A stretch of 64,000 nucleotides of DNA from positions 6,532 to 70,531 of the forward strand of contig JAZNBB010000058.1 of NCBI GenBank assembly GCA_045586845.1, read 5' to 3'. Shown here piece by piece: positions 6,312-62,190 of this stretch. Numbering within the stretch: the first letter of the stretch is position 1; every line of letters starts with the position of its first letter. This stretch comes from Eubacteriales bacterium (GTDB lineage: Bacteria > Bacillota > Clostridia > Oscillospirales > CAG-272). The notes under the pieces were generated by a model. That model saw only the letters and a program-made list of their open reading frames with translations, had not been told where the DNA came from and did not search any database. The position numbers and the translations under genes were made by a program.

Positions 6312-7735
6312 TACAGGTTGTAGTATTTTTCAAACTCAGCGGGATGAGGAATTGCTGCCATAGCTCTGCATTCCTCGCGCTTTGTCTTAATAAAATTGTT
6401 GATGAGCTCAATGGGGAACACGCCGCCTGCAGTCAGGTAGTCGTGGTCAGCCTCCAGCGCGTCAAGTGCCTCGGGCAGCGAGGTGGGCAAATGGCGCAGC
6501 TTTGCCTTTTCCTCGTCGGAAAGATGATAGAGGTTGACGTCGTAAGGACCCCAACCATTTTTGTGCGGGTCTATCTTGTTTTTGATGCCGTCCAATCCTG
6601 CCATCAGGATAGCGGCATAGCAGAAATATGGGTTGCAGGTCGCATCGGGATTGCGCAGCTCAAAGCGACGCTTGTCGGGCGACTTTGCATAAGCGGGGAT
6701 GCGAATGACTGCAGAGCGGTTGGAGGTAGCATAGCCCACCGTAACAGGTGCCTCAAAGCCGGGTACCAGACGCTTGAACGAGTTGGTGCTGGGATTGGTC
6801 AGCGCGCAAAGGGAAGCGATGTGCGAAAGAATGCCGCCCATGAAGTAGTGCGCGGTCTCACTCAGATGTGCGTAGCCGTTATCATCTGCGAAAATGGGCT
6901 GCCCGTCCTTAAACAGCAGCATATGCACATGCATACCGCTGCCTGCCTCACCTGCAATGGGCTTGGGCATAAAGGTGGCGGATTTGCCGTATTTGAGCGC
7001 GGTGTTATGAATGATATACTTGATCATCATGGTTGCATCCGCCATGTGCACCACCTCGCCAAGCTGCGGTTCGATCTCAAACTGACCGGATGCTGCCACT
7101 TCGGGGTGATGATAGTTGATCTCAATCCCCGCGTCCAGCATATGCATACACATTTCGCTTCTTGCTTCATACGAACGGTCAAAGGGCTTGGCAATATGGT
7201 AAGCTTTCTGCTTGGGAACGATCACGCCGTGTCCCTGGCTGTCGCTGTTCCAGTAGGATTGCTCTGCGTCCACGTGTGCTCCGATATAATTGGGGGAGAC
7301 CTCCCAGCCCACGTTGTCAAACAGATAGAACTCAAACTCGGGCAGGATCTTCATGGTGTCGGCAACACCGCACGCACGCATATAAGCAACAGCCGCCTTG
7401 ATGATATTTCTGGGGTACTGTGCAAGCGGCTTGTTTTCCGGGCTGGCAATGATCATAGCGTCGCCGGTCATGGTCAGCGTGGGAATATCGCAGAAGGGGT
7501 CGATCTGTGCGGTGTTCGGATCGGGAATAAACACCATGTCGCTCTTTTCCACTACAGCGTAGCCGTAGTTGGAGGCATCAAATCCAATGCCGCTTTTCAT
7601 GGTATCCTCTGTAAAGTTCCGGGCGGGAATGGTGACATGGCGGTATTGACCGTTGATATCCACCATTTTGAAATCCACCATTTTGATGCCGTGCTCACGG
7701 ATCATGCTCATGATATCCTGTACGCTTTTTGCCAT
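6311..7735 (-). CDS. glnA: glutamine synthetase, type I
   Basis: 474 aa with a typical GS N-terminal beta-grasp and catalytic-domain blocks (KPIAGEAGSGMHVHM, NPYF). RBS aaaggag. Confidence 0.9.
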   Translation of the reverse strand: MAKSVQDIMSMIREHGIKMVDFKMVDINGQYRHVTIPARNFTEDTMKSGIGFDASNYGYAVVEKSDMVFIPDPNTAQIDPFCDIPTLTMTGDAMIIASPENKPLAQYPRNIIKAAVAYMRACGVADTMKILPEFEFYLFDNVGWEVSPNYIGAHVDAEQSYWNSDSQGHGVIVPKQKAYHIAKPFDRSYEARSEMCMHMLDAGIEINYHHPEVAASGQFEIEPQLGEVVHMADATMMIKYIIHNTALKYGKSATFMPKPIAGEAGSGMHVHMLLFKDGQPIFADDNGYAHLSETAHYFMGGILSHIASLCALTNPSTNSFKRLVPGFEAPVTVGYATSNRSAVIRIPAYAKSPDKRRFELRNPDATCNPYFCYAAILMAGLDGIKNKIDPHKNGWGPYDVNLYHLSDEEKAKLRHLPTSLPEALDALEADHDYLTAGGVFPIELINNFIKTKREECRAMAAIPHPAEFEKYYNL

Positions 7736-12036: not shown

Positions 12037-13173
12037 ATGCTTATGGAAAACGTAACGATCAACCGGGTCAAGACATCCTCGCAGAAAAAAGCGTTCGTTC
12101 AATTTCCTCTCAGACTCTATAAGAACAATCCGTTTTTTGTGCCGCCCTTGTATGGGGATGAAATGGCGCAATTCAAAAAGAATCATGCCTACAGTGATAC
12201 CTGCGACACCGCGTTTTTCCTTGCCATGAAAGGAAAAACGGTAGTGGGTCGCATCCAAGGTATTTTGCAGCGGCAGTCCAACGAGCTGCGAGGCGAGAAG
12301 CGCGTACGCTTTACCCGCTTTGACGCCATTGACGATCTCGCAGTTGCCAAAGCGCTGTTTGATGCCGTGGAAAACTGGGCGAAAGAGCAAGGCATGGATA
12401 CGGTCTGCGGACCTCTTGGTTATAGTGACTTGGAACGAGAAGGGCTGCTGATTGAAGGCTTTGATCAGCTTTCTACTTTTGAGGAACAGTACAATTATGA
12501 CTACTATCCCAAGCTGCTCGAGGCTTGCGGCTACGGTAAGGAGATCGACTGGTATGAGTTCCGCCTGCGCGCACCCCAGACCCCCAATCCTATGCTCGGC
12601 AGAGTGGCAGAGCGCGCGCTGGAGCTTTCAAAGCTGCACGTGGTGGACAGCTCCAAAATGTCCAAGAAAAAGTACATCCAGACCTATAAGGACGGCTTTT
12701 TCGATTGCCTGGACGAGTGCTACGCCCACCTGTACGGTGCCGTGCCGTTCACCGAGAATATGAAAAAGCAGATGATCGACCAGTTCATGCTGATTCTCAA
12801 TAAAGAATACCTCATGATCCTGTGCGACAAAGACGAGCGCGTGGTCGCGTTTGCCTTGTGCATTCCCGGTATCGGCGAGGCGCTGCAAAAGAGCGGGGGA
12901 CGGCTGACCCCGGGCGCGCTCGTCCGTGTGATGCGCGCTGCAAAAAAGCCGCGCACGCTGGATCTTGGGCTGATTGCGGTGCGCCCGCAATACCAGGCAG
13001 CAGGCGTCAACGCCGTTATGCTGCACCGCATGATCGAATATCTGCAGGCAGGCAAGGTCGAATACGCCGAAACCAATCTCAATCTCGAAACCAATACGCA
13101 GGTCATGGCGCAATGGAAATATTTTGACGCTACCCAACATAAACGCCGCAGATCCTATATTAAAACAATTTAG
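12037..13173 (+). CDS. uncharacterised double-GNAT-like acyltransferase family protein
   Basis: Matches a widespread roughly 370-aa family annotated as GNAT N-acetyltransferase. Recognisable blocks are F..FP..LYK..P.FVPPL, VGRI, GP.GYSD.EREGLL.EGF and YNYDYYP. The start lies 3 nt after the degV stop. Confidence 0.55.
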   Translation: MLMENVTINRVKTSSQKKAFVQFPLRLYKNNPFFVPPLYGDEMAQFKKNHAYSDTCDTAFFLAMKGKTVVGRIQGILQRQSNELRGEKRVRFTRFDAIDDLAVAKALFDAVENWAKEQGMDTVCGPLGYSDLEREGLLIEGFDQLSTFEEQYNYDYYPKLLEACGYGKEIDWYEFRLRAPQTPNPMLGRVAERALELSKLHVVDSSKMSKKKYIQTYKDGFFDCLDECYAHLYGAVPFTENMKKQMIDQFMLILNKEYLMILCDKDERVVAFALCIPGIGEALQKSGGRLTPGALVRVMRAAKKPRTLDLGLIAVRPQYQAAGVNAVMLHRMIEYLQAGKVEYAETNLNLETNTQVMAQWKYFDATQHKRRRSYIKTI

Positions 13174-13175
13174 CC

Positions 13176-13204
13176 GTAGGGACCGGCGTCCTCGACGGTC
13201 CTAC
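13176..13204. repeat. GTAG-headed palindromic unit (type A, loop GCGTCCTCGA)
   Basis: GTAGGGACCG-GCGTCCTCGA-CGGTCCTAC, located between the GNAT-like gene and the carrier protein gene. Confidence 0.7.
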
Positions 13205-13228: not shown

Positions 13229-13450
13229 ATGCTTGAAAAACTCACCGAAATCATTGGTCGCGTGAACCCCGGAATTGACGTTTCCACCGTCACCCCCGAG
13301 ACCAAGCTCATGGAAGACCTTAAGTTGGACTCTCTGTCCATTATGCTGCTGGCTATGGAGATCGAGGCAGCGTTTGGCTTCCAGTTCAACGAGCCCGTAC
13401 AGTTCGTCACCGTACAGGACGTGTGCGATTACCTTGCCGCTAAAGCGTAA
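13229..13450 (+). CDS. acyl carrier protein (divergent, non-AcpP-like)
   Basis: 73 aa with the phosphopantetheine attachment motif LDSLS in MEDLKLDSLSIMLLAMEIE. The start MLEKLTEII was chosen in place of the 13124 ORF-track start, whose extension overlaps the upstream gene and the repeat. Confidence 0.7.
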   Translation: MLEKLTEIIGRVNPGIDVSTVTPETKLMEDLKLDSLSIMLLAMEIEAAFGFQFNEPVQFVTVQDVCDYLAAKA

Positions 13451-14805: not shown

Positions 14806-15004
14806 GCGGCTGTGCCGCAATATCATATTTGTAGGGACAGGCGTCCTCGACTGTCCGTTTCTGCAATACCACTATGACCACAGGTCACAATATCACTTTG
14901 TTATCCGTAGGGGCGACCATCGGTCGTCCGCTATCGCGGCGGCAGCAAGCCACCGCCCTACGACGTGGCTCGATGCGTACGGGCGATCATTGATCGCCCG
15001 CCCC
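14806..15004. repeat. array of short palindromic units (GTAG-headed and hairpin+AATATCA[CT] types)
   Basis: The units, in order:
- GCGGC-tgt-GCCGC followed by AATATCAT, 14806-14826.
- GTAGGGACAG-GCGTCCTCGA-CTGTCC, 14831-14856.
- AATACCAC, 14865-14872.
- TGACC-aca-GGTCA followed by CAATATCAC, 14875-14896.
- GTAGGGGCGACC-atc-GGTCGTCC, 14907-14933.
- A reverse-orientation unit ending CACCGCCCTAC, 14937-14960.
- GTACGGGCGATCA-t-TGATCGCCC, 14978-15004. Confidence 0.75.
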
Positions 15005-15035: not shown

Positions 15036-15626
15036 ATGGCTAATAAGAAAAACAAGAAAAAGCAGCGACTTTTTTCGCTCACGTGGAAATTCTGGCTGGG
15101 GTTTATTATTGTGCAACTGTGCTATTTGACAGTGTGTTCTAACGCGGTATATTCGGAGTGGCCGTGTAATGACAGAAATACGCAAACTGTTATTGGAGAA
15201 GTAGAGAATATCAGGGATGTAAGCACAGGCTTCAGAATTTATCGCGGTCACGGTTCGAAAGGTTACCTGGAGATTACCGTGAACGGGCAACCGTACCGCT
15301 TGTACGTTCAAAGCAATCAAAAGGAAATGAGCACTTCCGATGTTAAAGATAATCTTGCTATCGGTGATAGCGTAGAGATCGCGTACAAGGCACAAATTCG
15401 TATGTTCAAAGAATGCAGCGTTGTGGTCGGCATGAAAGATGACACGCAGACCTACCGTACGATAGAGGCTTATAACGCCAATGCCCGCGTGCTTTTGCCC
15501 GTATTCTCGGTATTGATGCTGGTCGCCGAGGCACTGTTGTGCCTGCCGCTTTACGCAGAATATTTGCTCAGGTTGATCGTGCTCGTCAGAACCCGAAAAA
15601 CGGAATGCGAAAAGAAAAAGAAATAG
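15036..15626 (+). CDS. hypothetical membrane protein
   Basis: Has a lysine-rich N-terminus, one N-terminal and one C-terminal hydrophobic segment, RBS gaaaggag and a terminator downstream. I recognise no motif. Confidence 0.45.
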   Translation: MANKKNKKKQRLFSLTWKFWLGFIIVQLCYLTVCSNAVYSEWPCNDRNTQTVIGEVENIRDVSTGFRIYRGHGSKGYLEITVNGQPYRLYVQSNQKEMSTSDVKDNLAIGDSVEIAYKAQIRMFKECSVVVGMKDDTQTYRTIEAYNANARVLLPVFSVLMLVAEALLCLPLYAEYLLRLIVLVRTRKTECEKKKK

Positions 15627-26356: not shown

Positions 26357-27499
26357 ATGAAATATTTGTCAGTAGCGGCTTTGCTTGTCGCACTGCTTTT
26401 GCTTTGCTCCTGCACTTCGGTGCAAACTATGCTGGAGCAAGAAACTGCCGATCTCACCCCGCCCGCCAAGGACACGGTGGATCTGCTTGACATTCCCGAT
26501 TATCTTGCCATGCCGCTTGACGATTACGTCACGCTGGGCGCATACACGGGTATGACTGTCAGCATCGATTCCATCAGCGTCACCGATGCGCAGGTCAACG
26601 AGGCGATCGAGGGCATCAAAACGCTCAACGGACTTTATGAGAAGATCACCACTCGCGCCGCCAAATGGGGTGATGTGCTCTTTCTTTCCTATACCTCCAT
26701 GTCCTCGGACGGCGGTACGGGTGTTGGTGAGGTGGACGTAGAGGTTGCACTTGCAGAAGATAGTGACTATCCCTCAGATTTTGTGGAAGGACTTGTGGGG
26801 GCGCCCTGCGGTATTCCCGTAGCTGTGACCGTCGAGGGTGAGAATGACGTGCTGACTACCTATACTGTGACAGTTTCCTATATCAAGGGCGATTATGCCG
26901 AGCTGACCGACGCGTTTGTGACTGAGTATACGAAAGGCGCGTGCACCAAGGCGGATGAGTTTTTTTCCTACTACAAGGAACAGCTTTGGAACGAAAAGTA
27001 TTACGACGTGGTCTATGACGCGTTGTGGGAGACTTGCGAGGCAAGCTGTAAGGCAAACGTTGTACCGGACGAAGCAGTGAGCTATTATCTGCAATCCATG
27101 GAGGATTATTATCGCCGTATGGCACGCGTAAACGGCGTTTCCTACGAAGCGGTGTTGGCTGCCTTTGATCTGGACGAGATCAAGATGATGAACCTGTCCT
27201 ACGGATATGCCGAAAAGGATATGATCTTTTACGCCATCGTTGCAGATGCGGAACTGCAGATTTCCGAGCAGCAGTATACCGATGCACTTTTGGAGTATGC
27301 TGCCAAGTATTTTGACAACTACGCCGCAGGCGTAGGCAAGGGAAGCGGACAGGGCGGCAAAGTGACAGTCGAGGACGTCGCGGCTTATCTGGACGCAGAG
27401 CAGAGAAACATCATCAAGGAGCTTTGCTATGACGAGCTGCTTTACGATTACCTGTACGAAAACAATCACATCATGATGGGCGACGTGCCCATGAATTAA
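26357..27499 (+). CDS. putative lipoprotein, function unknown (weak trigger-factor/chaperone-like resemblance)
   Basis: Has a signal peptide with lipobox LLLCSC. The acidic mature protein has no catalytic motif I can name. Confidence 0.5.
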   Translation: MKYLSVAALLVALLLLCSCTSVQTMLEQETADLTPPAKDTVDLLDIPDYLAMPLDDYVTLGAYTGMTVSIDSISVTDAQVNEAIEGIKTLNGLYEKITTRAAKWGDVLFLSYTSMSSDGGTGVGEVDVEVALAEDSDYPSDFVEGLVGAPCGIPVAVTVEGENDVLTTYTVTVSYIKGDYAELTDAFVTEYTKGACTKADEFFSYYKEQLWNEKYYDVVYDALWETCEASCKANVVPDEAVSYYLQSMEDYYRRMARVNGVSYEAVLAAFDLDEIKMMNLSYGYAEKDMIFYAIVADAELQISEQQYTDALLEYAAKYFDNYAAGVGKGSGQGGKVTVEDVAAYLDAEQRNIIKELCYDELLYDYLYENNHIMMGDVPMN

Positions 27500-27513
27500 A
27501 GAAACAATGATAA

Positions 27514-27545
27514 AACGCCATTACGAGAAGTAGTGGCGTTTTTTC
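27514..27545 (+). terminator. rho-independent terminator
   Basis: AACGCCATTAC-gagaa-GTAGTGGCGTT followed by TTTTT. Confidence 0.7.
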
Positions 27546-27598
27546 GTAGAGAAAGCTTGTTGTTTTTGAAAATTTACAGGCTTATTTTTCTTCTTTTG

Positions 27599-27627
27599 TT
27601 GACAAAACCATGTTTCGAGCGTATAAT
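27599..27627 (+). promoter_or_regulatory. sigma-A type promoter (TTGACA-17-TATAAT) for the LRR lipoprotein gene
   Basis: Perfect consensus hexamers with a 17-nt spacer, about 45 nt upstream of the ATG. Confidence 0.6.
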
Positions 27628-27671
27628 TGGTTATGTAATCAAAGTGAATTATGGGGTGATAGGAAAGGAAA

Positions 27672-30011
27672 ATGAACATGAAAAGAAATGCATTCATATT
27701 ATTTGCTCTGCTATTGGCAATCACTATGCTGTTTGCTGCGTGCGATCAAGGCGAAGGTCAAGAAGAAATTACCAATGAAGTGATTGTTGGTGGTGACATC
27801 GTTACCGAGGAAGATGCCACAACGGATAATGGCGAAAACGCTGAGCCTGATGCGACAACTGAAGATCCCAACCAGCCGCACGAGCACGCATTTGGCGAGT
27901 GGACAACGGTCAAGGCGGCAACCTGCACGCAGGCAGGTAAGCAAGAGCGCATTTGTTCATGTGGCAAAAAAGAAAAAATGACTCTTGATGCACTCGGTCA
28001 TGCCGAAGTGATTGATGCGGCGGTAGAACCGACGTGCTCTGAGCAGGGATTAACAGAAGGCAAACATTGCGCTAATTGTGATACGGTATTTGTGGCGCAG
28101 GAGGTAATGCCTGCAACGGGAGAGCATGTGTATGTTAATGAAGTATGTCAGGGTTGCTCGGCGAAACTGCAATACAGTGAAGGCTTGGTGTTTGTATCAA
28201 ATGGTGATGGCACTTGTTACGTCAGTGATATTGGTTCCTGTACAGATACGGATATTGTGATTCCGAAACGTTCTCCTCTTGGCGATAGCGTGACGAGCAT
28301 TGGATCTTTGGCGTTCGATAACTGCGTTGGAATGGTAAGCATCACTATCCCTGATAGCGTGACAAGTATTGGCACTCAAGCATTCTACAATTGTACCGGC
28401 TTGAAGCGTATAACTATTCCGGATAGTGTGACAAGCATTGGCTGGAGTGCATTTTCTGACTGTACCGGTTTGACGCGTATTACCATTCCGGATAGCGTGG
28501 TAGACATTAATACCGGTGCATTCTCCAACTGCACCGGCTTAACGAGCGCTATCATTGGCGACAGCGTGATAAGTATTGGTATTGATGCATTCTGGCATTG
28601 CCGCAGCTTGACGAGCATTACGATTCCGGATAGCGTGACGAGCATTGGCAATAGCGCGTTCGGTGGCTGCACCGGCTTGATGAGTATTACCATTGGTGAT
28701 AGCGTGACGAGCATTGGCAATAGAGCGTTCGAAGGATGCACCGGTTTGACGCGTATTACCATTCCGGATGGTGTGACGAGCATAGGATATTCTGCGTTCG
28801 AAGGATGCACCGGCTTGACGAGCATTACTATTCCGGATAGCGTAACGAGCATTGCTTGTCCGGATAGCATGACAATTGTTGGCGATGGGGTGTTCTCAGG
28901 TTGCACCAGGTTGACAAGCTTAATTGTTTCGGAAGGAAACACTACTTATCACAGCGCAGGGAATTGCATTATTGAAACGGAAAGCAAAACCTTGGTTGCC
29001 GGATGCAATACGAGCATTATTCCTGCGGACGGTAGTGTGACAAGCATTGGTGCATTTGCGTTCTCCGGCTGCGAGGGTTTGACAAGTGTTACCATTCCGG
29101 ATGGCGTGACAAGCATTGGCATTAAAGCGTTCTCTATCTGCAAAGGCTTGACAAGTGTTACCATTCCGGATAGTGTGACAAGTATTGATACTCGTGCGTT
29201 CGATTTCTGCACAGGATTGACGAGCATTGCCATTCCGGATAGTGTGACAAGCCTTGGAGCATTTGTGTTCGAAGGGAGTTATGACCTCATTCGAAAAGAG
29301 CAGGGCGTTAGCTATGTGGATGGTTGGGTGGTGGATTGCGACTCTAATGTTACAACAGTTGACTTAACTGGCACGAGAGGCATAGCTGCATCAGCGTTTT
29401 ATGGGTGCAACTTGACGAGTATTGCTATTCCGGATAGTGTGATAAGCATTGGTGATAGGGCGTTTGAACGTTGTACAGGCATGACGAGTGTTACCATTGG
29501 AAACGGTGTGACAATGATTGGCGAGTATGCGTTCTCCGACTGTACCGAATTGACGAGTGTTACCATTGGAAACGGTGTGACAATGATTGGCAAGTATGCG
29601 TTCTCCGACTGTACCGGCTTGACGAACATCACGATTTCGGATAGCGTGGCAAGCATTGGTGATTCAGCGTTCAAGGGGTGCACAAATATGACGAGTATTA
29701 CTATTCCGGGCAATGTGACAAGTATCGGTGATTGGGCGTTTAAAGGTTGCACAAGTATGACGAGTGCTACCATTGGAAACGGTGTGACAATGATTGGCAA
29801 GTTTGCGTTCTCCGACTGTACCGGCTTGACGAACATCACGATTTCGGATAGCGTGACAAACATTGGATTTGCTGCGTTTTCTGACTGCACCGCCTTGACC
29901 GACGTGTATTTCACCGGTACCGAGCAAGAATGGGCTGCAATTGAGCTTGGAGACTTCAACGACGCTCTTTCAACCGCCACCATCCACTACAACTACGTTC
30001 CCGAAGAATAA
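27672..30011 (+). CDS. surface lipoprotein with BspA-type leucine-rich repeats
   Basis: A signal peptide with lipobox LFAAC is followed by a Cys-rich segment. Then come about 25 repeats of about 23 aa of the form ITIPDSVTSIGxxAFxxCTGLTS. Confidence 0.8.
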   Translation: MNMKRNAFILFALLLAITMLFAACDQGEGQEEITNEVIVGGDIVTEEDATTDNGENAEPDATTEDPNQPHEHAFGEWTTVKAATCTQAGKQERICSCGKKEKMTLDALGHAEVIDAAVEPTCSEQGLTEGKHCANCDTVFVAQEVMPATGEHVYVNEVCQGCSAKLQYSEGLVFVSNGDGTCYVSDIGSCTDTDIVIPKRSPLGDSVTSIGSLAFDNCVGMVSITIPDSVTSIGTQAFYNCTGLKRITIPDSVTSIGWSAFSDCTGLTRITIPDSVVDINTGAFSNCTGLTSAIIGDSVISIGIDAFWHCRSLTSITIPDSVTSIGNSAFGGCTGLMSITIGDSVTSIGNRAFEGCTGLTRITIPDGVTSIGYSAFEGCTGLTSITIPDSVTSIACPDSMTIVGDGVFSGCTRLTSLIVSEGNTTYHSAGNCIIETESKTLVAGCNTSIIPADGSVTSIGAFAFSGCEGLTSVTIPDGVTSIGIKAFSICKGLTSVTIPDSVTSIDTRAFDFCTGLTSIAIPDSVTSLGAFVFEGSYDLIRKEQGVSYVDGWVVDCDSNVTTVDLTGTRGIAASAFYGCNLTSIAIPDSVISIGDRAFERCTGMTSVTIGNGVTMIGEYAFSDCTELTSVTIGNGVTMIGKYAFSDCTGLTNITISDSVASIGDSAFKGCTNMTSITIPGNVTSIGDWAFKGCTSMTSATIGNGVTMIGKFAFSDCTGLTNITISDSVTNIGFAAFSDCTALTDVYFTGTEQEWAAIELGDFNDALSTATIHYNYVPEE
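29482..29856 (+). repeat. near-identical in-frame DNA repeats inside the LRR gene (69-bp tandem; 207-bp displaced copy)
   Basis: Three copies starting at 29482, 29551 and 29758 share tgacgagtg(t/c)taccattggaaacggtgtgacaatgattggc(a/g)agt(a/t)tgcgttctccgactgtacc. Copies 2 and 3 continue identically through ggcttgacgaacatcacgatttcggatagcgtg. Confidence 0.8.
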
Positions 30012-30070
30012 TCAAACATAAAGCAAATCCGCACCGACGGGGCGGATAAATTAACGAAAAAATCGTACAA

Positions 30071-30110
30071 ATCAAGGACTGTATCACTTGGATGCAGTCC
30101 TTGATTTTTT
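30071..30110 (+). terminator. rho-independent terminator after the LRR gene
   Basis: ATCAAGGACTG-(loop)-CAGTCCTTGAT followed by TTTTTT. Confidence 0.75.
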
Positions 30111-30130
30111 ATAAATAGTTGTTGCAAGCG

Positions 30131-30154
30131 CGGGCGATCACAGATCGCCCCTAC
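30131..30154. repeat. GTAG-headed palindromic unit (type B), reverse orientation
   Basis: CGGGCGATCACAGATCGCCCCTAC is the exact reverse complement of the unit at 30205-30228. Confidence 0.8.
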
Positions 30155-30204
30155 AACAGCTTTTGTTTTGGGCTTTATCTCGTAAAATCCATACAGAATT
30201 TCCC

Positions 30205-30228
30205 GTAGGGGCGATCTGTGATCGCCCG
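30205..30228. repeat. GTAG-headed palindromic unit (type B), forward orientation
   Basis: GTAGGGGCGATCTGTGATCGCCCG forms a perfect 24-bp inverted doublet with 30131-30154, separated by a 50-bp spacer. Confidence 0.8.
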
Positions 30229-30249
30229 TTTTTTATATAAAGAACTTAT

Positions 30250-32649
30250 TTACTCTGCGGTAAATACCACTATCCCGTCCTCCACGCTTGCCGTGACACG
30301 CTCTCCCGGCTTGATCTTTTCCTCCAACAACGCATTGGCAAATGCGTCCTCGACGCATTCGGTGATCACGCGGCGCAGCTCGCGTGCGCCTTTTTCGGGT
30401 GCATAGCCTATCTTTGCCACGTGCAGGGCAACGCTTTTGTCAAATTCCAGCGTTACGCCAAGGGCTTTTGCGCGTCCCGAAACCTCGTCAAGCATAGTAC
30501 GGGCAATTTGGGCTGCGTGCTCCTCTGTAAGATCGGCAAATACGATGACCTTATCCACTCTGCCCAGAAATTCGGCAGGGAACAGCTCGCGCAATGCCGT
30601 GCGCATCTGCTCGTCCGCCTGTGTGCGCTCGTTTGCCGAAAAGCCGATGCTGCGGCTGCGTTTGCCCGCGCCCGCATTGCTCGTCATGATAATGACTGTG
30701 TTGGAAAAATCCACGCGTCGCCCCTGACTGTCGCGCAGCGTGCCGTCGTCCAGCACCTGCAAAAGCAGGTGAAACACGTCGGGGTGTGCCTTTTCGATTT
30801 CGTCAAAAAGCAGAACACTGTAGGGTGCACGCCGCACGCGCTCGGTCAACTGTCCGCCCTGTTCATATCCAACGTAGCCGGGCGGTGAGCCGATCAGTTT
30901 TGATGCGCTGTGCTTTTCCATATATTCGGACATATCAAGGCGGATCATGGCACTGTCCGTACCGAACAGCGCATACGCAAGTGCCTTGCACATCAGTGTT
31001 TTGCCAACGCCTGTGTGTCCGAGAAACACGAAGGAGCCGATGGGGCGTCCCTCTTGCTTCATGCCGGTTCTTGAGCGTTTGATAGCAGCCGCCACCGCTC
31101 GCGCCGCCTGTTCCTGTCCGATCACGCGTGCGCACAGTTCATCCTCAAGCAACAACAATCGTTCGCGCTCCGAGCGTAAAAGTCCAGTAACCGGGATTTG
31201 CGTCCACTGTGTCACCACTTCTGCGATCTCGCGTTCAGTTACGGTGGGTGTACTGAGTACTTGATCCGTATGCAGCTGTGATTGCAGCTGTGTAAGCCGC
31301 CCTTCTGCGTAGATCTCGCGCTCACGTATCTCAGCAGCGCGTGAAAAGTCCTGTTCTGTCACGGCTTGCTCCTTTTGTGCAGCAAGATCGGCAAGTTCTG
31401 ATTGCAGCGATTTGATCTCTGGGGAGGCTTTGCAAAGCGAGAGACGCAGCCGTGCCGCTGCTTCATCAACCAGATCGATCGCTTTGTCCGGCAAAAATCT
31501 GTCCGTGATATACCGCTGTGACATGCTCACAGCAGCCTGCAGCGCTCCATCCGATATGGCAAGCGCATGATGCTCCTGATAGCGTGGACGCAGCCCTTTG
31601 AGTATTTCCATAGTTTGCTCGGCGTTTGGTTCTTTGATCAGCACTGATTGAAACCTACGCTCCAACGCGGCATCCTTTTCGATATAGCGACGGTATTCCG
31701 AAAGTGTAGTTGCGCCGATGACCTGCATTTCACCGCGCGCGAGGGCAGGCTTGATAATATTTGCTGCATCCACCGCGCCCTCGGCGGCACCTGCACCGAT
31801 AATGGTGTGGATCTCGTCGATAAACAAAATGATATCAGGATCTTGAGAGGCACGCTGCAGCACTGCTTTGAACCGTTCTTCAAATTCGCCGCGGTATTTT
31901 GCACCTGCGATCATGGAAGCAAGGTCAAGCGAGATGATCTGCTTGTGCACCAAATTCTCCGGGACCTCACCTGCTGCAATGCGTTGCGCAAGCCCCTCCA
32001 CCACGGCAGTTTTGCCTACGCCGGGCTCCCCGATCAGACAAGGATTGTTTTTTTGCTTGCGGGAAAGTATTTGAATCACGCGCGCACTCTCCTCGTCACG
32101 TCCGATTACAGGGTCGGGGGTGCCCGTCATGGCGATGGCGGTCAGATCTTTGCCGAACCCTTGTAAAACGCCTTCGGTTTTGTCTTTGCCACGTGACTGT
32201 TTGCCGCCTTTTTTTGCGCTGTTCATAAAACTATGACAATCCGAGATCAACTCAGAGGTGGGAATACCCATGCCGTCAAGGATCCGTGAGGCAACCGCGT
32301 CGTGCTCATTGCAAATTGCCAAGAGCAAGTGCTCTGTGCCGATATAGGTTTGTGTACTGCCTGCACATTCGCGCGCTGCACCCTCAATGATCTTGCGCAA
32401 CCGCGGCGTCATGTCTTCGGGGGAAACAACCGAATAAGAGCCAACGCCTGTCAGCGATGCAACCGCATCGCGCACGCGTGACAGATCAGCCCCGCGGGCT
32501 TGTAAAAGTTTGGCGGCAACGCAGTCGCTCTCGCCCACAAGCCCCATGAGTAAATGCTCCGAGCCAATATAGGTGTGTCCCAACTCGGCGGCGTATTTTT
32601 GTGAAAGTCCCAGCGCATTCTGCGCCTTTTTGGTGAATTTGGTGTTCAT
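30250..32649 (-). CDS. clpC: ATP-dependent Clp protease ATP-binding subunit ClpC
   Basis: Has N-terminal Clp repeat domains, two Walker A motifs ([16 protein letters not shown]) and a UVR-like linker, and follows mcsA-mcsB. Confidence 0.92.
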
Positions 32650-56471: not shown

Positions 56472-56497
56472 GTAGGGGACGACGTCCTCGACGTCCC
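56472..56497. repeat. GTAG-headed palindromic unit (type A), forward
   Basis: GTAGGGGACG-ACGTCCTCGA-CGTCCC. Confidence 0.75.
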
Positions 56498-56548
56498 GAG
56501 CAGGTGCAATGAACTTGTAACATTGTAAAAAAATTGTTTATGCAGGAC

Positions 56549-56574
56549 GGTGCGTCGAGGACGTCGCACCCTAC
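56549..56574. repeat. GTAG-headed palindromic unit (type A), reverse
   Basis: GGTGCG-TCGAGGACGT-CGCACCCTAC; its reverse complement is GTAGGGTGCG-ACGTCCTCGA-CGCACC. It forms an inverted doublet with 56472-56497, separated by a 51-bp spacer. Confidence 0.75.
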
Positions 56575-59193: not shown

Positions 59194-62043
59194 ATGAAAC
59201 AAGAAAAAATCGTTATTCGCGGTGCACGCGTCAACAATCTCAAGAATATTGACGTCGAGATCCCGCGTGATCAGCTGGTGATACTGACAGGGCTTTCGGG
59301 CTCGGGAAAGTCCTCGCTGGCGTTTGATACCGTATATGCAGAGGGGCACAGACGCTTTGTCGAGTCGCTGTCCTCGTATGCACGTATGTTCCTCGGTCAA
59401 ATGGATAAGCCTGACGTGGATACCATCGACGGTCTGAGCCCCGCCATTTCGATCGACCAAAAGACCACCTCCAAAAATCCGCGCTCTACCGTGGGCACCG
59501 TGACCGAAATTTACGATTACCTGCGCTTGCTCTACGCACGCGTGGGTGTGCCGCATTGCCCGGTCTGTGGCAAGGAGATACGCCGACAGAGCACAGATAC
59601 CATCATTGATAAGATATGCGAGCTGCCGGAGGGAGAGCGCTTTTTGGTGCTTGCACCCGTTGTGCGCGCACAAAAGGGTATGCACGAAAAGGTGCTGAAC
59701 GATGCCAAAAAAAGCGGCTATGCCCGCGTGCGCATCGATGGCAGCTTGTACGATCTTGGCGAGGACATCTCGCTGGATAAGAACAAAAAGCACGATATTG
59801 AGGTCGTAGTGGACCGTCTTGTGCTCAAGGAAGGTGTGCGTTCACGTCTTGGCGACTCGGTGGAGACCGCGTTGAATCTTGCCGAAGGGCATCTCTTGAT
59901 CGTGACCGTACCGCGCGGAGAGGGCAAGCCCATTGAGCTGTCATTTTCGCAAAGCTATGCTTGTGAGGAGCACGGTATTTCAATCGGAGAGCTTGAGCCC
60001 CGTATGTTTTCCTTTAATAATCCCACGGGCGCGTGTCCGGCTTGTGCGGGGCTTGGTGAGATGCAGACGGTATCTGCCGCCAAGGTCATTCCCGATAAGC
60101 GACTGTCGCTGCGCGGCGGTGCCATTGCGGTCAACGGCTTTAAGACCTTGGAGGAGGACAGCTGGAACGGTCCTTTGTTTGCCGCTGTGGGTGAAATAGT
60201 GGGCTTTACCTTGGATATGCCCATCCGCGAGTACAGCCCGTCTGCGCTTGACGCGCTGCTGCACGGCACGGGCGATCGCGTCTATCGCATCAAGCGTCAT
60301 TTTGCGGGCGTGGATCACGAACAAACGCTGACCTTCCACGGTATTCTTGAAATGGTGGAAAGCCGCATGAAAAACGGCGGAATGTTCGGCAAGGAGTATT
60401 ATACACAATTCGTGCAAGAGGCGGATTGCCCCGTTTGCGGCGGCAAGCGACTCTCTCCCGTGGTGCTGGGCGTGACCGTCGGCGGACTCAACATTCACGA
60501 TTTCTGTGCTATGTCGGTTGAAAATGCACTGGCGTTTGTCGAGTCTCTGCAGTTTTCGGGCGGTGAAGCGGTCATTTCGCGTGAGATCCTCAAGGAGATC
60601 CGCGCGCGTTTGGGCTTTCTTGTCAGCGTGGGACTCGGTTATCTGACGCTGGGGCGCAAAGCGGGCACGCTGTCGGGCGGTGAAGCGCAGCGCATCAGGC
60701 TTGCCACGCAGATCGGCTCTGCGCTGACGGGTGTGCTGTATATTTTGGACGAGCCCAGCATAGGTCTGCACTCCCGTGACAATTCCAAGCTGATTGCCAC
60801 GCTCAAAACCTTGCGTGACCTTGGAAATACTGTTATCGTGGTCGAGCACGACGAGGAGACCATGCAAGAATCCGACTATATCATCGACGTAGGTCCCGGT
60901 GCGGGCGTGCACGGTGGTCAGATCGTTGCTGCGGGCACACCTGCCGAGGTTGCGAAAAATCCCGATTCGCTGACGGGCGGCTATCTCTCGGGTAGACTCT
61001 CTATACCCGTGCCGACAGTGCGCAGACCGGGCAATGGCAATTTCCTTCGTGTTTTTGGCGCAGAGGAGCACAACCTGAAAAAGTTGAACGTGGAGATCCC
61101 GCTGGGTTGTTTTGTATGTGTCACCGGCGTGTCGGGATCGGGAAAATCCTCGTTGGTCAACGGTATCATCCATCCTGTGTTGGCGGATAGACTCAATAAC
61201 GCCATCACGTACCCCGGTAAACACGAGCAGCTGACGGGCGACGAGCATCTTGACAAGATCATCTGCATCGATCAAAGCCCCATAGGCAGAACGCCGCGCT
61301 CCAATCCCGCCACCTATACAGGGCTTTTTGCCGATATCCGCGATCTGTTCGCACAGACCAAAGACGCGAAGGCAAAGGGTTACGGACCGTGCAGATTTTC
61401 CTTTAACGTCAAGGGCGGACGCTGCGAAGCCTGCGAGGGTGACGGCGTGCGCTGTATTGAAATGCACTTTTTGCCCGACGTTTACGTGACGTGTGATGTA
61501 TGTAAGGGCAAGAGATACAACCGTGATACGTTGGATGTCAAGTATAAAGGGAAGAACATCAATGACGTGCTGGAAATGACGGTTGAGGAGGGCGTTGCCT
61601 TCTTTGACGGTATGCCGCGTATTCTGCGCAAGCTCAAAACGCTGCAGGACGTCGGACTTGGCTATATCAAGATCGGTCAGTCGTCCACCACGCTCTCGGG
61701 CGGTGAGGCGCAGCGCGTCAAGCTTGCCACCGAGCTTTCCAAGCGCGATACCGGCAAGACCATCTACGTGCTGGATGAGCCCACCACGGGTCTGCACACG
61801 GCTGATGTGGCGCAGCTGCTGGGTGTGCTGCAACGTCTTGTGGACGGTGGAAACACGGTGCTTGTCATCGAGCACAACATGGATGTCATCAAGTGTGCCG
61901 ACTATATCATAGACCTTGGTCCCGAGGGTGGAGACGGTGGCGGCACCTTGGTTGCAAAGGGCACACCCGAGCAGGTCGCGGAGTGCGAGAGGTCGTATAC
62001 CGGACAGTACTTGCAGAAGGTAATAGGTAAGAGTGAAAAGTGA
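59194..62043 (+). CDS. uvrA: excinuclease ABC subunit A
   Basis: Has two ABC ATPase modules (GLSGSGKSSLAF, GVSGSGKSSLV; LSGGEAQR twice) and zinc-finger Cys clusters. Confidence 0.96.
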   Translation: MKQEKIVIRGARVNNLKNIDVEIPRDQLVILTGLSGSGKSSLAFDTVYAEGHRRFVESLSSYARMFLGQMDKPDVDTIDGLSPAISIDQKTTSKNPRSTVGTVTEIYDYLRLLYARVGVPHCPVCGKEIRRQSTDTIIDKICELPEGERFLVLAPVVRAQKGMHEKVLNDAKKSGYARVRIDGSLYDLGEDISLDKNKKHDIEVVVDRLVLKEGVRSRLGDSVETALNLAEGHLLIVTVPRGEGKPIELSFSQSYACEEHGISIGELEPRMFSFNNPTGACPACAGLGEMQTVSAAKVIPDKRLSLRGGAIAVNGFKTLEEDSWNGPLFAAVGEIVGFTLDMPIREYSPSALDALLHGTGDRVYRIKRHFAGVDHEQTLTFHGILEMVESRMKNGGMFGKEYYTQFVQEADCPVCGGKRLSPVVLGVTVGGLNIHDFCAMSVENALAFVESLQFSGGEAVISREILKEIRARLGFLVSVGLGYLTLGRKAGTLSGGEAQRIRLATQIGSALTGVLYILDEPSIGLHSRDNSKLIATLKTLRDLGNTVIVVEHDEETMQESDYIIDVGPGAGVHGGQIVAAGTPAEVAKNPDSLTGGYLSGRLSIPVPTVRRPGNGNFLRVFGAEEHNLKKLNVEIPLGCFVCVTGVSGSGKSSLVNGIIHPVLADRLNNAITYPGKHEQLTGDEHLDKIICIDQSPIGRTPRSNPATYTGLFADIRDLFAQTKDAKAKGYGPCRFSFNVKGGRCEACEGDGVRCIEMHFLPDVYVTCDVCKGKRYNRDTLDVKYKGKNINDVLEMTVEEGVAFFDGMPRILRKLKTLQDVGLGYIKIGQSSTTLSGGEAQRVKLATELSKRDTGKTIYVLDEPTTGLHTADVAQLLGVLQRLVDGGNTVLVIEHNMDVIKCADYIIDLGPEGGDGGGTLVAKGTPEQVAECERSYTGQYLQKVIGKSEK

Positions 62044-62056
62044 ATAAGTGTTGTAG

Positions 62057-62083
62057 AAAACCCTTGCGCCGCAAGGGTTTTCT
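62057..62083 (+). terminator. rho-independent terminator after uvrA
   Basis: AAAACCCTTGC-gcc-GCAAGGGTTTT followed by CTT. Confidence 0.7.
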
Positions 62084-62093
62084 TAAATCTAAC

Positions 62094-62122
62094 GTAGGGG
62101 CGACCATCGGTCGTCTGCCTAC
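62094..62122. repeat. GTAG-headed palindromic unit (type B)
   Basis: GTAGGGGCGACC-atc-GGTCGTCTGCCTAC is nearly identical to the unit at 14907-14933. Confidence 0.75.
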
Positions 62123-62164
62123 ATCGCTGCCACCTGTAAGGTTATCCGTCCAACAACAACTCTT

Positions 62165-62190
62165 GTAGGGACCGGCGTCCCCGACGGTCC
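62165..62190. repeat. GTAG-headed palindromic unit (type A)
   Basis: GTAGGGACCG-GCGTCCCCGA-CGGTCC has the same stem as the unit at 13176, with one loop change. Confidence 0.75.

Follow-up and report, generated by a model that had tools for sequence, protein, structure and literature searches.

To our knowledge, REP/REPIN-RAYT systems have been worked out almost wholly in Proteobacteria. The REPs of E. coli have side roles in mRNA 3'-end stabilization and in termination. The TnpA(REP) of E. coli recognizes a hairpin with a 5' GTAG (PMC3333891, PMC3479197: Ton-Hoang et al. 2012; Messing et al. 2012). A homodimer of REPs with GTAG on the inside is the 'TT dimer' of Di Nocera et al. 2013 (PMC3733652), and the inverted REP doublet is the REPIN of Bertels & Rainey 2011 (PMC3116915; PMC3337134). 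REPs typically lie between convergent genes or downstream of coding regions, and some GTAG REP dimers are embedded in longer palindromes, for example GTAG-15 of Anabaena variabilis (PMC3733652). For subclass 2.4, the equivalent of RAYT group 4, both in-frame REPs inside tnpA(REP) and 'double foot' REPs have been published (PMC6006769), and the REPIN literature associates REPINs only with group 2/3 RAYTs. No mention of Clostridia was found in the REPIN and GTAG-REP literature searched; in the text of the GTAG-REP survey (PMC3733652), the terms Clostridia and Firmicutes occur zero times.

The 64-kb stretch of DNA analyzed here (the window, to which positions refer unless a locus is named) holds a doublet of GTAG units that can be compared with each of these systems. 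Like the REPINs of P. fluorescens SBW25 and the Enterobacteria (PMC3116915; PMC3337134), it consists of inverted REP hairpins with a short spacer, folds as one hairpin, occurs at many unrelated intergenic sites, and is linked to a RAYT-type Y1 transposase. Unlike REPINs, it is found in Clostridia instead of Proteobacteria, most members of the REP family in the sample are not doublets, and the linked RAYT-like genes resemble group 4/subclass 2.4 and hold the units inside the ORF in place of flanking REPINs. In addition, the spacer shows good conservation, and the doublet carries outer arms and half modules with terminators. With the TT homodimers it shares a GTAG foot and GC-rich palindrome, partners 20 to 100 nt apart, a large stem-loop, and a location between convergent ORFs (PMC3733652). 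Variable spacers are the rule of thumb for TT dimers (PMC3733652), whereas the spacer here is conserved in length and sequence. As in the REP/BIME of E. coli (PMC3333891; PMC3479197), inverted REPs form a mosaic with conserved linker motifs that are not REPs, and the GTAG guide tetranucleotide is present, but the unit is different and shorter, with an 8-bp perfect stem, and no IHF-type linker motif was recognized.

Results

A perfect inverted doublet next to the clpC stop codon

A sequence-only reading of the window had described two exact 24-nt reverse complements with a 50-nt gap and inward-facing GTAG heads, lying between the terminator of an LRR lipoprotein gene and the 3' end of clpC. Re-measurement returned this geometry in every respect, and both flanks were matched when the genes were read. 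The inverted repeat is 100% complementary over 24 nt (30131-30154 and 30205-30228), with 50 nt between the arms, and the inward-facing heads are CTAC at 30151-30154 and GTAG at 30205-30208. The genes and the parts of the doublet are as follows.

27672 to 30011, plus strand: gene for a BspA-type LRR_5 protein with a lipoprotein-like N-terminus
30131 to 30154, minus strand: REP unit 1, CGGGCGATCACAGATCGCCCCTAC as printed and GTAGGGGCGATCTGTGATCGCCCG on the minus strand; GTAG head and 8-bp GC hairpin with a 3-nt loop
30155 to 30204, no strand: spacer of 50 nt, partly self-complementary and homologous to the 42- to 50-nt spacers of other doublets, consensus GRCTGTTTTTGTTTGGGTTTT...ACACTT
30205 to 30228, plus strand: REP unit 2, GTAGGGGCGATCTGTGATCGCCCG, exact reverse complement of unit 1, with TTTTTT directly 3' on the plus strand (terminator-like)
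30250 to 32649, minus strand: clpC, convergent with the LRR gene, stop codon at 30250-30252, mcsB and mcsA upstream

Both arms have the structure of a REP, a GTAG foot with a short GC-rich palindrome, and each is a hairpin by itself (GTAG plus GGGCGATC-tgt-GATCGCCC). As a pair they have the structure of a REPIN, namely, inverted REPs with a short spacer that fold as one hairpin. Three matches to the 24-mer at up to 3 mismatches are present in the window, compared to 0.00 expected from 100 dinucleotide shuffles, and by our own estimate (∼6.4e6 position/gap combinations × 4^-24) only ∼2e-8 perfect 24-nt inverted pairs would be expected within 100 nt. The long hairpin that had been suggested for the doublet was borne out by predicted folding. 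The 133-nt doublet region is predicted to form one long hairpin as DNA (−35.9 kcal/mol, z = −8.8), and the RNA of the clpC sense strand folds at −60.6 kcal/mol (z = −8.6). The copy at locus L102, a palindrome of ∼140 nt, folds likewise (−59.2 kcal/mol, z = −15.5).

The LRR gene has its own terminator hairpin at 30069-30107. A terminator scan of the plus strand also returned a stem at 30209-30227 with the tail GTTTTTTATA, which is unit 2; a T-run follows unit 2 on the plus strand and is absent after both units on the clpC (minus) strand. The doublet sits in the presumptive 3' untranslated region of clpC. A promoter scan of 29900-30400 returned no promoter-like site. Convergent genes flank the doublet in the window (LRR gene on the plus strand, clpC on the minus strand) and also the copies at L102 and L088, which is the location expected of REPs. 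Five tandem 69-nt repeats (29500-29844; 62 to 100% identical) are coding repeats of the LRR_5 gene and are unrelated to the doublet.

Recurrence of the doublet with a homologous spacer

When the unit pattern GTAGGGGCGATCNNNGATCGCCC was scanned over one genome per species, at least 120 blocks were returned, and the matches listed came almost all from Oscillospiraceae, Eubacteriales, Faecousia, Acutalibacteraceae, and Acetobacterium genomes. The genome of the window was not among the matches listed, and counts per genome are lower bounds. The architecture of the window doublet was found at non-orthologous loci in at least eight species-level Oscillospirales/Eubacteriales genomes. Common to the recurring copies are an outer arm (ATAGTTGCCGC...), a unit, a homologous spacer of 42 to 50 nt, and a second unit. 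The genes beside the other copies are unrelated to the LRR gene and clpC, and the copies are therefore at non-orthologous sites. Head-inward identical units were found with the following spacers.

42 nt: L113
44 nt: L065
48 nt: L219
49 nt: L102, L120, and L124
50 nt: L088 and the window

These head-inward copies align with the window in both spacer and outer arm, and alignments and the spacer profile indicate that all share the left arm ATAGTTGCCGC-N6. The window spacer matched the nhmmer spacer profile with 50.1 bits (E = 4.7e-13). Two further loci, L015 and L079, have the doublet spacer with a variant left arm.

Genome JAZRDG01 holds three of these loci (L088, L015, and L079) and JAZOLE01 another three (L102, L113, and L246). 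The ClpC proteins of these genomes are 88.7% and 88.2% identical, respectively, to that of the window, and both are congeners of the window organism. The doublet is therefore multicopy within genomes of this genus, and in both congeners the whole doublet, spacer included, has been copied to several non-orthologous sites per genome, as is expected of REPINs. Thus, the further doublets on which the REPIN-like interpretation depended were found at unrelated loci in related genomes, several each in two congeners, and their spacers are confined to 42 to 50 nt and homologous in sequence. The expectation that doublets would outnumber singlets was not borne out, with a doublet-type spacer in only 11 of 120 loci among the unit-pattern matches listed.

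Whether doublets exceed random pairing of singlets depended on the control. Three strict head-inward pairs at 40 to 55 nt were observed, compared to 0.03 expected under uniform placement, but a label-shuffle control gave an expectation of 1.3, and 256 of 2,000 shuffles reached 3, which is not significant. At L034, other REP families form a tandem array that inflates this label-shuffle value. Because that control is confounded by the array, the argument against chance rests on the homology of the spacers and arms, which indicates that the pairing is not due to chance.

An element larger than the doublet

The doublet of 98 nt that had been delimited from the window sequence stands as described, but sequence comparison indicates that the element extends beyond it, roughly from 30015 to 30247. 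The additional parts are as follows.

30015 to 30110, plus strand: half module between the LRR stop codon and the doublet, with an A-rich run, a hairpin at 30029-30045, ATAAATTAACG at 30046-30056, the terminator hairpin at 30069-30107, and a T-run at 30105-30110
30111 to 30130, no strand: left outer arm, ATAAATAGTTGTTGCAAGCG, homologous to the conserved ATAGTTGCCGC-N6 arm that lengthens the palindrome in other copies
30229 to 30247, no strand: right flank, a T6 run and a degenerate right outer arm, TTTTTTATATAAAGAACTT, ending 2 to 3 nt before the clpC stop codon

In its full form, ∼140 nt long, the half module has an A-rich run, a small covarying hairpin, and ATAAATTAGCGG, which are followed by a terminator hairpin and a T-run, and is completed by the outer arm; the match to the nhmmer half-module profile spans 30015-30154 of the window with 119.8 bits. 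Full-length matches flank the doublet on both sides at L102, L120, and L124. One-sided half modules occur at contig edges in L043 and L012. The window has its half module only on the left (30015-30130), and its right side keeps only the T6 run and the degenerate outer arm (30229-30247) before the clpC stop codon. The right-flank stretch of the window recurs in the congener locus L246 between the clpC stop codon and the first unit, and its AAAGAACT is also the right end of the copies at L088 and L219. The left half of L120 was excluded as independent evidence because of a possible assembly fold-back at the contig start: positions 1-87 of this contig reverse-complement 288-374 (87 nt, 89% complementary), probably because the assembler folded back at a long hairpin.

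Half modules precede doublets after unrelated genes (window 30015-30110; L102 1170-1290 and 1385-1493; L124 1-296). The small covarying hairpin resembles an outward-facing terminator, and the ATAAATTAGCGG motif is conserved. AT-rich near-direct repeats, TTTTTTATAAATAG and TTTTTTATATAAAG, are present on either side of the window copy; as a target-site duplication they were rejected, since other copies are without them. Searches of Rfam 15 with the window element and the full L102 composite returned only subthreshold hairpin-like matches and none above the gathering score, and blastn of the L102 composite against a phage collection returned no match.

RAYT-like genes that contain the unit

Among the unit-pattern matches listed (at least 120), six loci hold an ORF of ∼165 amino acids with two in-frame units.

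L106, 6897 to 7397, plus strand: RAYT-like ORF
L116, 2871 to 3344, minus strand: RAYT-like ORF
L029, 2375 to 2845, minus strand: RAYT-like ORF
L052, 6416 to 6883, minus strand: RAYT-like ORF
L100, 317 to 880, plus strand: RAYT-like ORF
L087, 5218 to 5748, plus strand: RAYT-like pseudogene with an internal stop

The in-frame units are inverted with heads outward, lie ∼146 to 148 nt apart, encode 'VGAIIDRP' and 'GRSMIAPT', and bracket the HUH motif. Their positions are conserved between homologues that are only 45% identical. The ORFs have HUH and Y motifs (NHIH and WQKSFYDH; NH[IFV]H, WQ, and YIxxNP-like). The best match in the PDB was 4ER8, E. coli TnpA(REP) (E = 3.5e-6). The match to NCBIfam NF047646, 'REP-associated tyrosine transposase', reached 71.2 bits (E = 8e-20; cut-off, 80), and that to Pfam Y1_Tnp (PF01797) reached 22.9 bits (cut-off, 23). 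These matches point clearly toward TnpA(REP), but both model scores fall slightly short of the curated thresholds.

The REP unit is embedded in RAYT-like Y1/HUH transposase genes of genomes that also carry the doublet. In JAZRQR01, the RAYT-like ORF at L100 shares the unit with the doublet at L065 and with a remnant at L110, and the ORF at L052 contains the exact 23-mer of the window. No RAYT homologue was found within the 64-kb window.

By motifs, the RAYT-like ORFs resemble subclass 2.4/group 4. As in TnpA(REP) subclass 2.4 (Quentin et al. 2018, PMC6006769), in-frame REPs are present (L106, L116, L029, L052, and L100), and the window has a double-foot REP. The insertions described for subclass 2.4 are mostly between HUH and Y (PMC6006769), whereas one of the two insertions in these ORFs precedes HUH.

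Other REP units in the window and in the sampled loci

The window has about 13 GTAG-tagged GC hairpins of several sequence families, nearly all of them intergenic.

14907, 14977, and 62094: units of the doublet family
13176, 14831, 62165, 56472, and 56549: units of a second REP family, GTAGGGACCGGCGTCCTCGACGGTCC
14936 and 22230: other GTAG hairpins

The 'double foot' REP at 13176-13204, GTAGGGACCGGCGTCCTCGACGGTCCTAC, has a 5' GTAG and a 3' CTAC and is located between the end of an ORF at 13173 and the start of a small gene at 13229. Four GTAG hairpins of three families are clustered at 14831-15000, upstream of an ORF start at 15036, and consist of 14831 (plus), 14907 (plus), 14936-14961 (minus), and 14977 (plus, with a GTAC head). 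At 56472-56574 there is a heads-outward heterodimer, GTAGGGGACGACGTCCTCGACGTCCC and GTAGGGTGCGACGTCCTCGACGCACC, with 51 nt between the units and stems that differ by compensatory changes. Behind a 949-amino-acid ORF (59194-62043), the stretch 62053-62190 has a terminator hairpin (62053-62083) and then two direct GTAG units, at 62094 and 62165, which belong to different families.

Generic GTAG hairpins (n = 415 in 925 kb of the listed loci and the window) are strongly clustered in all relative orientations; adjacent pairs at most 200 nt apart comprised 61 head-out, 51 direct, and 39 head-in. Two large tandem arrays were seen, a REP-cluster array of several families at L034 (3900-5350; period, ∼410 nt) and an array of the doublet-family unit at L036 (6565-6825; period, 119 nt). 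Near-identical heads-outward doublets at L094 (22-116) and L111 (7443-7537), both of JAFXAN01, have spacers of 47 to 49 nt from a different spacer family and carry further outer inverted repeats, AAACAGTAATTT ... AAATTACTGTTT.

A metagenome scan for head-inward doublets returned mostly another REP family, from soil, that shares the 12-nt head, and the family of the window was present in only 3 of the loci returned. The soil family, GTAGGGGCGATCCCTTGYGGTCGCCC (L123-L242), is abundant and has GTAG-inside doublets with spacers of tightly 35 to 40 nt that are bounded by TATAC...GTATA.

Arm identity and the clpC 3' site among congeners

The perfect identity of the two arms had been taken to suggest a recent event. 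The copies do not support this. The arms are perfectly complementary in essentially all of them, including the unit-loop bases and the outer-arm 6-mers that differ between copies, and compensatory changes are seen in 9 of the 29 pairs of the RNAalifold consensus, again including these bases. Spacers within one genome have meanwhile drifted to ∼60% identity (L015 versus L079), and L246 has a doublet with unlike arms at the same site as that of the window. Because arms stay complementary while spacers drift, and because the same-site doublet of L246 has unlike arms, arm identity is not a clock.

No sister strain of the window organism was found in the searched collections, in which the nearest other ClpC is 90% identical. 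None of the five congeners examined has the LRR gene here. In these, clpC converges on a 380-amino-acid gene (window 26357-27499), either directly or, at L246, with a 108-amino-acid ORF between. The intergenic region of clpC and the 380-amino-acid gene is a variable hot spot: at 27500-30250 the window has the 2.3-kb BspA-type LRR gene, L246 has the 108-amino-acid ORF (6400-7292), and L001 (8403-8486), L002 (8400-8610), and L245 (6400-6475) have only REP units and the shared terminator. Among six congeners, the REPs that directly follow the clpC stop codon vary from genome to genome.

L001: one unit with a GCAG head
L245: one second-family unit
L243 and L244: second-family units
L002: several units, and one unit followed by a spacer homologue without a partner
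L246: a doublet at the same position as that of the window

The L246 doublet reads TAA-ATAAGTTCTTTATGTCAAAAA-unit-47 nt-unit, with a diverged spacer, and its 21-nt flank is the same as that of the window at 19 of 21 positions. L245, the closest relative of L246 (ClpC, 94.7% identical), is without a doublet. Two histories of the clpC site fit these observations: an old insertion may have been lost or replaced several times, or a single precise hot spot may have received insertions repeatedly. Among the copies examined, no empty site within a species, transposition intermediate, or target signature was seen.

Discussion

Nature of the element

The doublet belongs to a palindromic composite that occurs repeatedly and is assembled from REP units, and these units also mark RAYT-like genes. 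In our judgment, the feature in the window is probably one copy of a nonautonomous REP-derived palindromic element, made up of a GTAG-inside REP homodimer, a family-specific spacer of ∼50 nt, and bracketing outer arms. The REPIN-like reading proposed from the window sequence holds in that the inverted REP doublet recurs with its spacer and the unit occurs inside RAYT-like genes. It falls short in that doublets are the minority in the sample, the RAYT-like genes resemble group 4 and not group 2 or 3, and none was found in the window.

By analogy with E. coli TnpA(REP), the only case in which this has been demonstrated (PMC3333891, PMC3479197), a RAYT would recognize the GTAG-footed hairpin and copy the doublet, now or in the past, in single-stranded form. 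The identity of the arms might then be kept by copying or repair of the palindrome, or by selection on the hairpins, rather than reflecting youth. A wider proposal, which we put forward tentatively and regard as doubtful, is a genus-wide REPIN-type population in gut Oscillospirales, serviced by a subclass 2.4/group 4 RAYT with in-frame REPs. The replicating unit would be a palindromic mosaic of ∼320 nt with the spacer at its center and, going outward on each side, a REP, an outer arm, and a terminator-bearing half module; the arms would evolve in concert, and sites after the stop codons of convergent genes would be occupied repeatedly.

At the clpC site, the doublet is probably transcribed as a 3'-UTR hairpin because it lies directly after the clpC stop codon, and the clpC transcript probably passes it because neither unit has a T-run on the clpC strand. 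The transcript would stop at the hairpin 30069-30107, read in reverse, and a very stable 3' hairpin would be left. The doublet, the LRR terminator, and the unit 2/T6 hairpin may together insulate the two convergent genes. Such insulation would be a by-product or a co-opted role, of a kind known for the REPs of E. coli.

Alternative explanations

A structure of RNA or DNA that is selected in place, as a bidirectional terminator or insulator, a clpC 3'-UTR stabilizer, or a small RNA gene, with copies that were spread by recombination or recruited for their function, and not transposed, seems unlikely. A REP hairpin does lie 2 to 21 nt from the clpC stop codon in all six congeners, even though the units differ, unit 2 with its T6 run fits the pattern of a terminator, the long RNA hairpin is very stable (−60.6 kcal/mol), and the half module holds inward- and outward-facing covarying terminator-like hairpins. 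However, unrelated genes precede the element elsewhere, the LRR gene already has a canonical terminator, both units lack a trailing T-run on the clpC strand, there was no Rfam match, and 29900-30400 has no promoter-like site.

It appears quite improbable that the element is instead the MITE of a TIR-type transposon, in which the outer arm and unit, together ∼40 nt, would be the TIR, the GTAG hairpins a mere part of it, and the enzyme a DDE transposase rather than a RAYT. The inverted repeat of L102 and L120 reaches ∼20 nt past the units, the whole 140-nt element is a near-perfect palindrome, and AT-rich near-direct repeats are found on either side of the window copy, all of which would fit a MITE. 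Yet a consistent target-site duplication is absent, the flanks of L102, L124, and L120 being inverted rather than direct; the unit is far more common as singlets or in other arrangements and is also found inside RAYT-like genes; and a DDE transposase with such ends was seen at none of the loci. A chance or local event, either two independent REP singlets landing side by side or a local inverted duplication confined to this genome, is hardly credible. REP hairpins of several families do cluster in all orientations (with the 61 head-out, 51 direct, and 39 head-in pairs given above), and the label shuffle expects 1.3 pairs where 3 were observed. Nevertheless, that expectation is inflated by the L034 array, the spacer length is confined to 42 to 50 nt, uniform placement predicts 0.03 such pairs, and doublets in other genomes have homologous spacers and outer arms.

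Implications

The REP doublet is a known kind of genomic repeat, found here in uncultured gut Clostridia, a group in which it has hardly been described. There is a practical side for metagenome assemblies, in which REP units yield spurious short ORFs and fold-back contig ends and such elements break or mirror contigs. If the system is indeed a REPIN population served by a group 4 RAYT, it would contradict the view that only group 2/3 RAYTs have REPINs. The doublet family occurs together with a RAYT type whose gene contains these REPs, and REPs can thereby be studied in a second lineage, distant from the first. The system in Clostridia opens the questions of whether the doublet is the replicating unit, how its arms stay identical, and whether its hairpins serve as 3'-end structures of housekeeping genes such as clpC.
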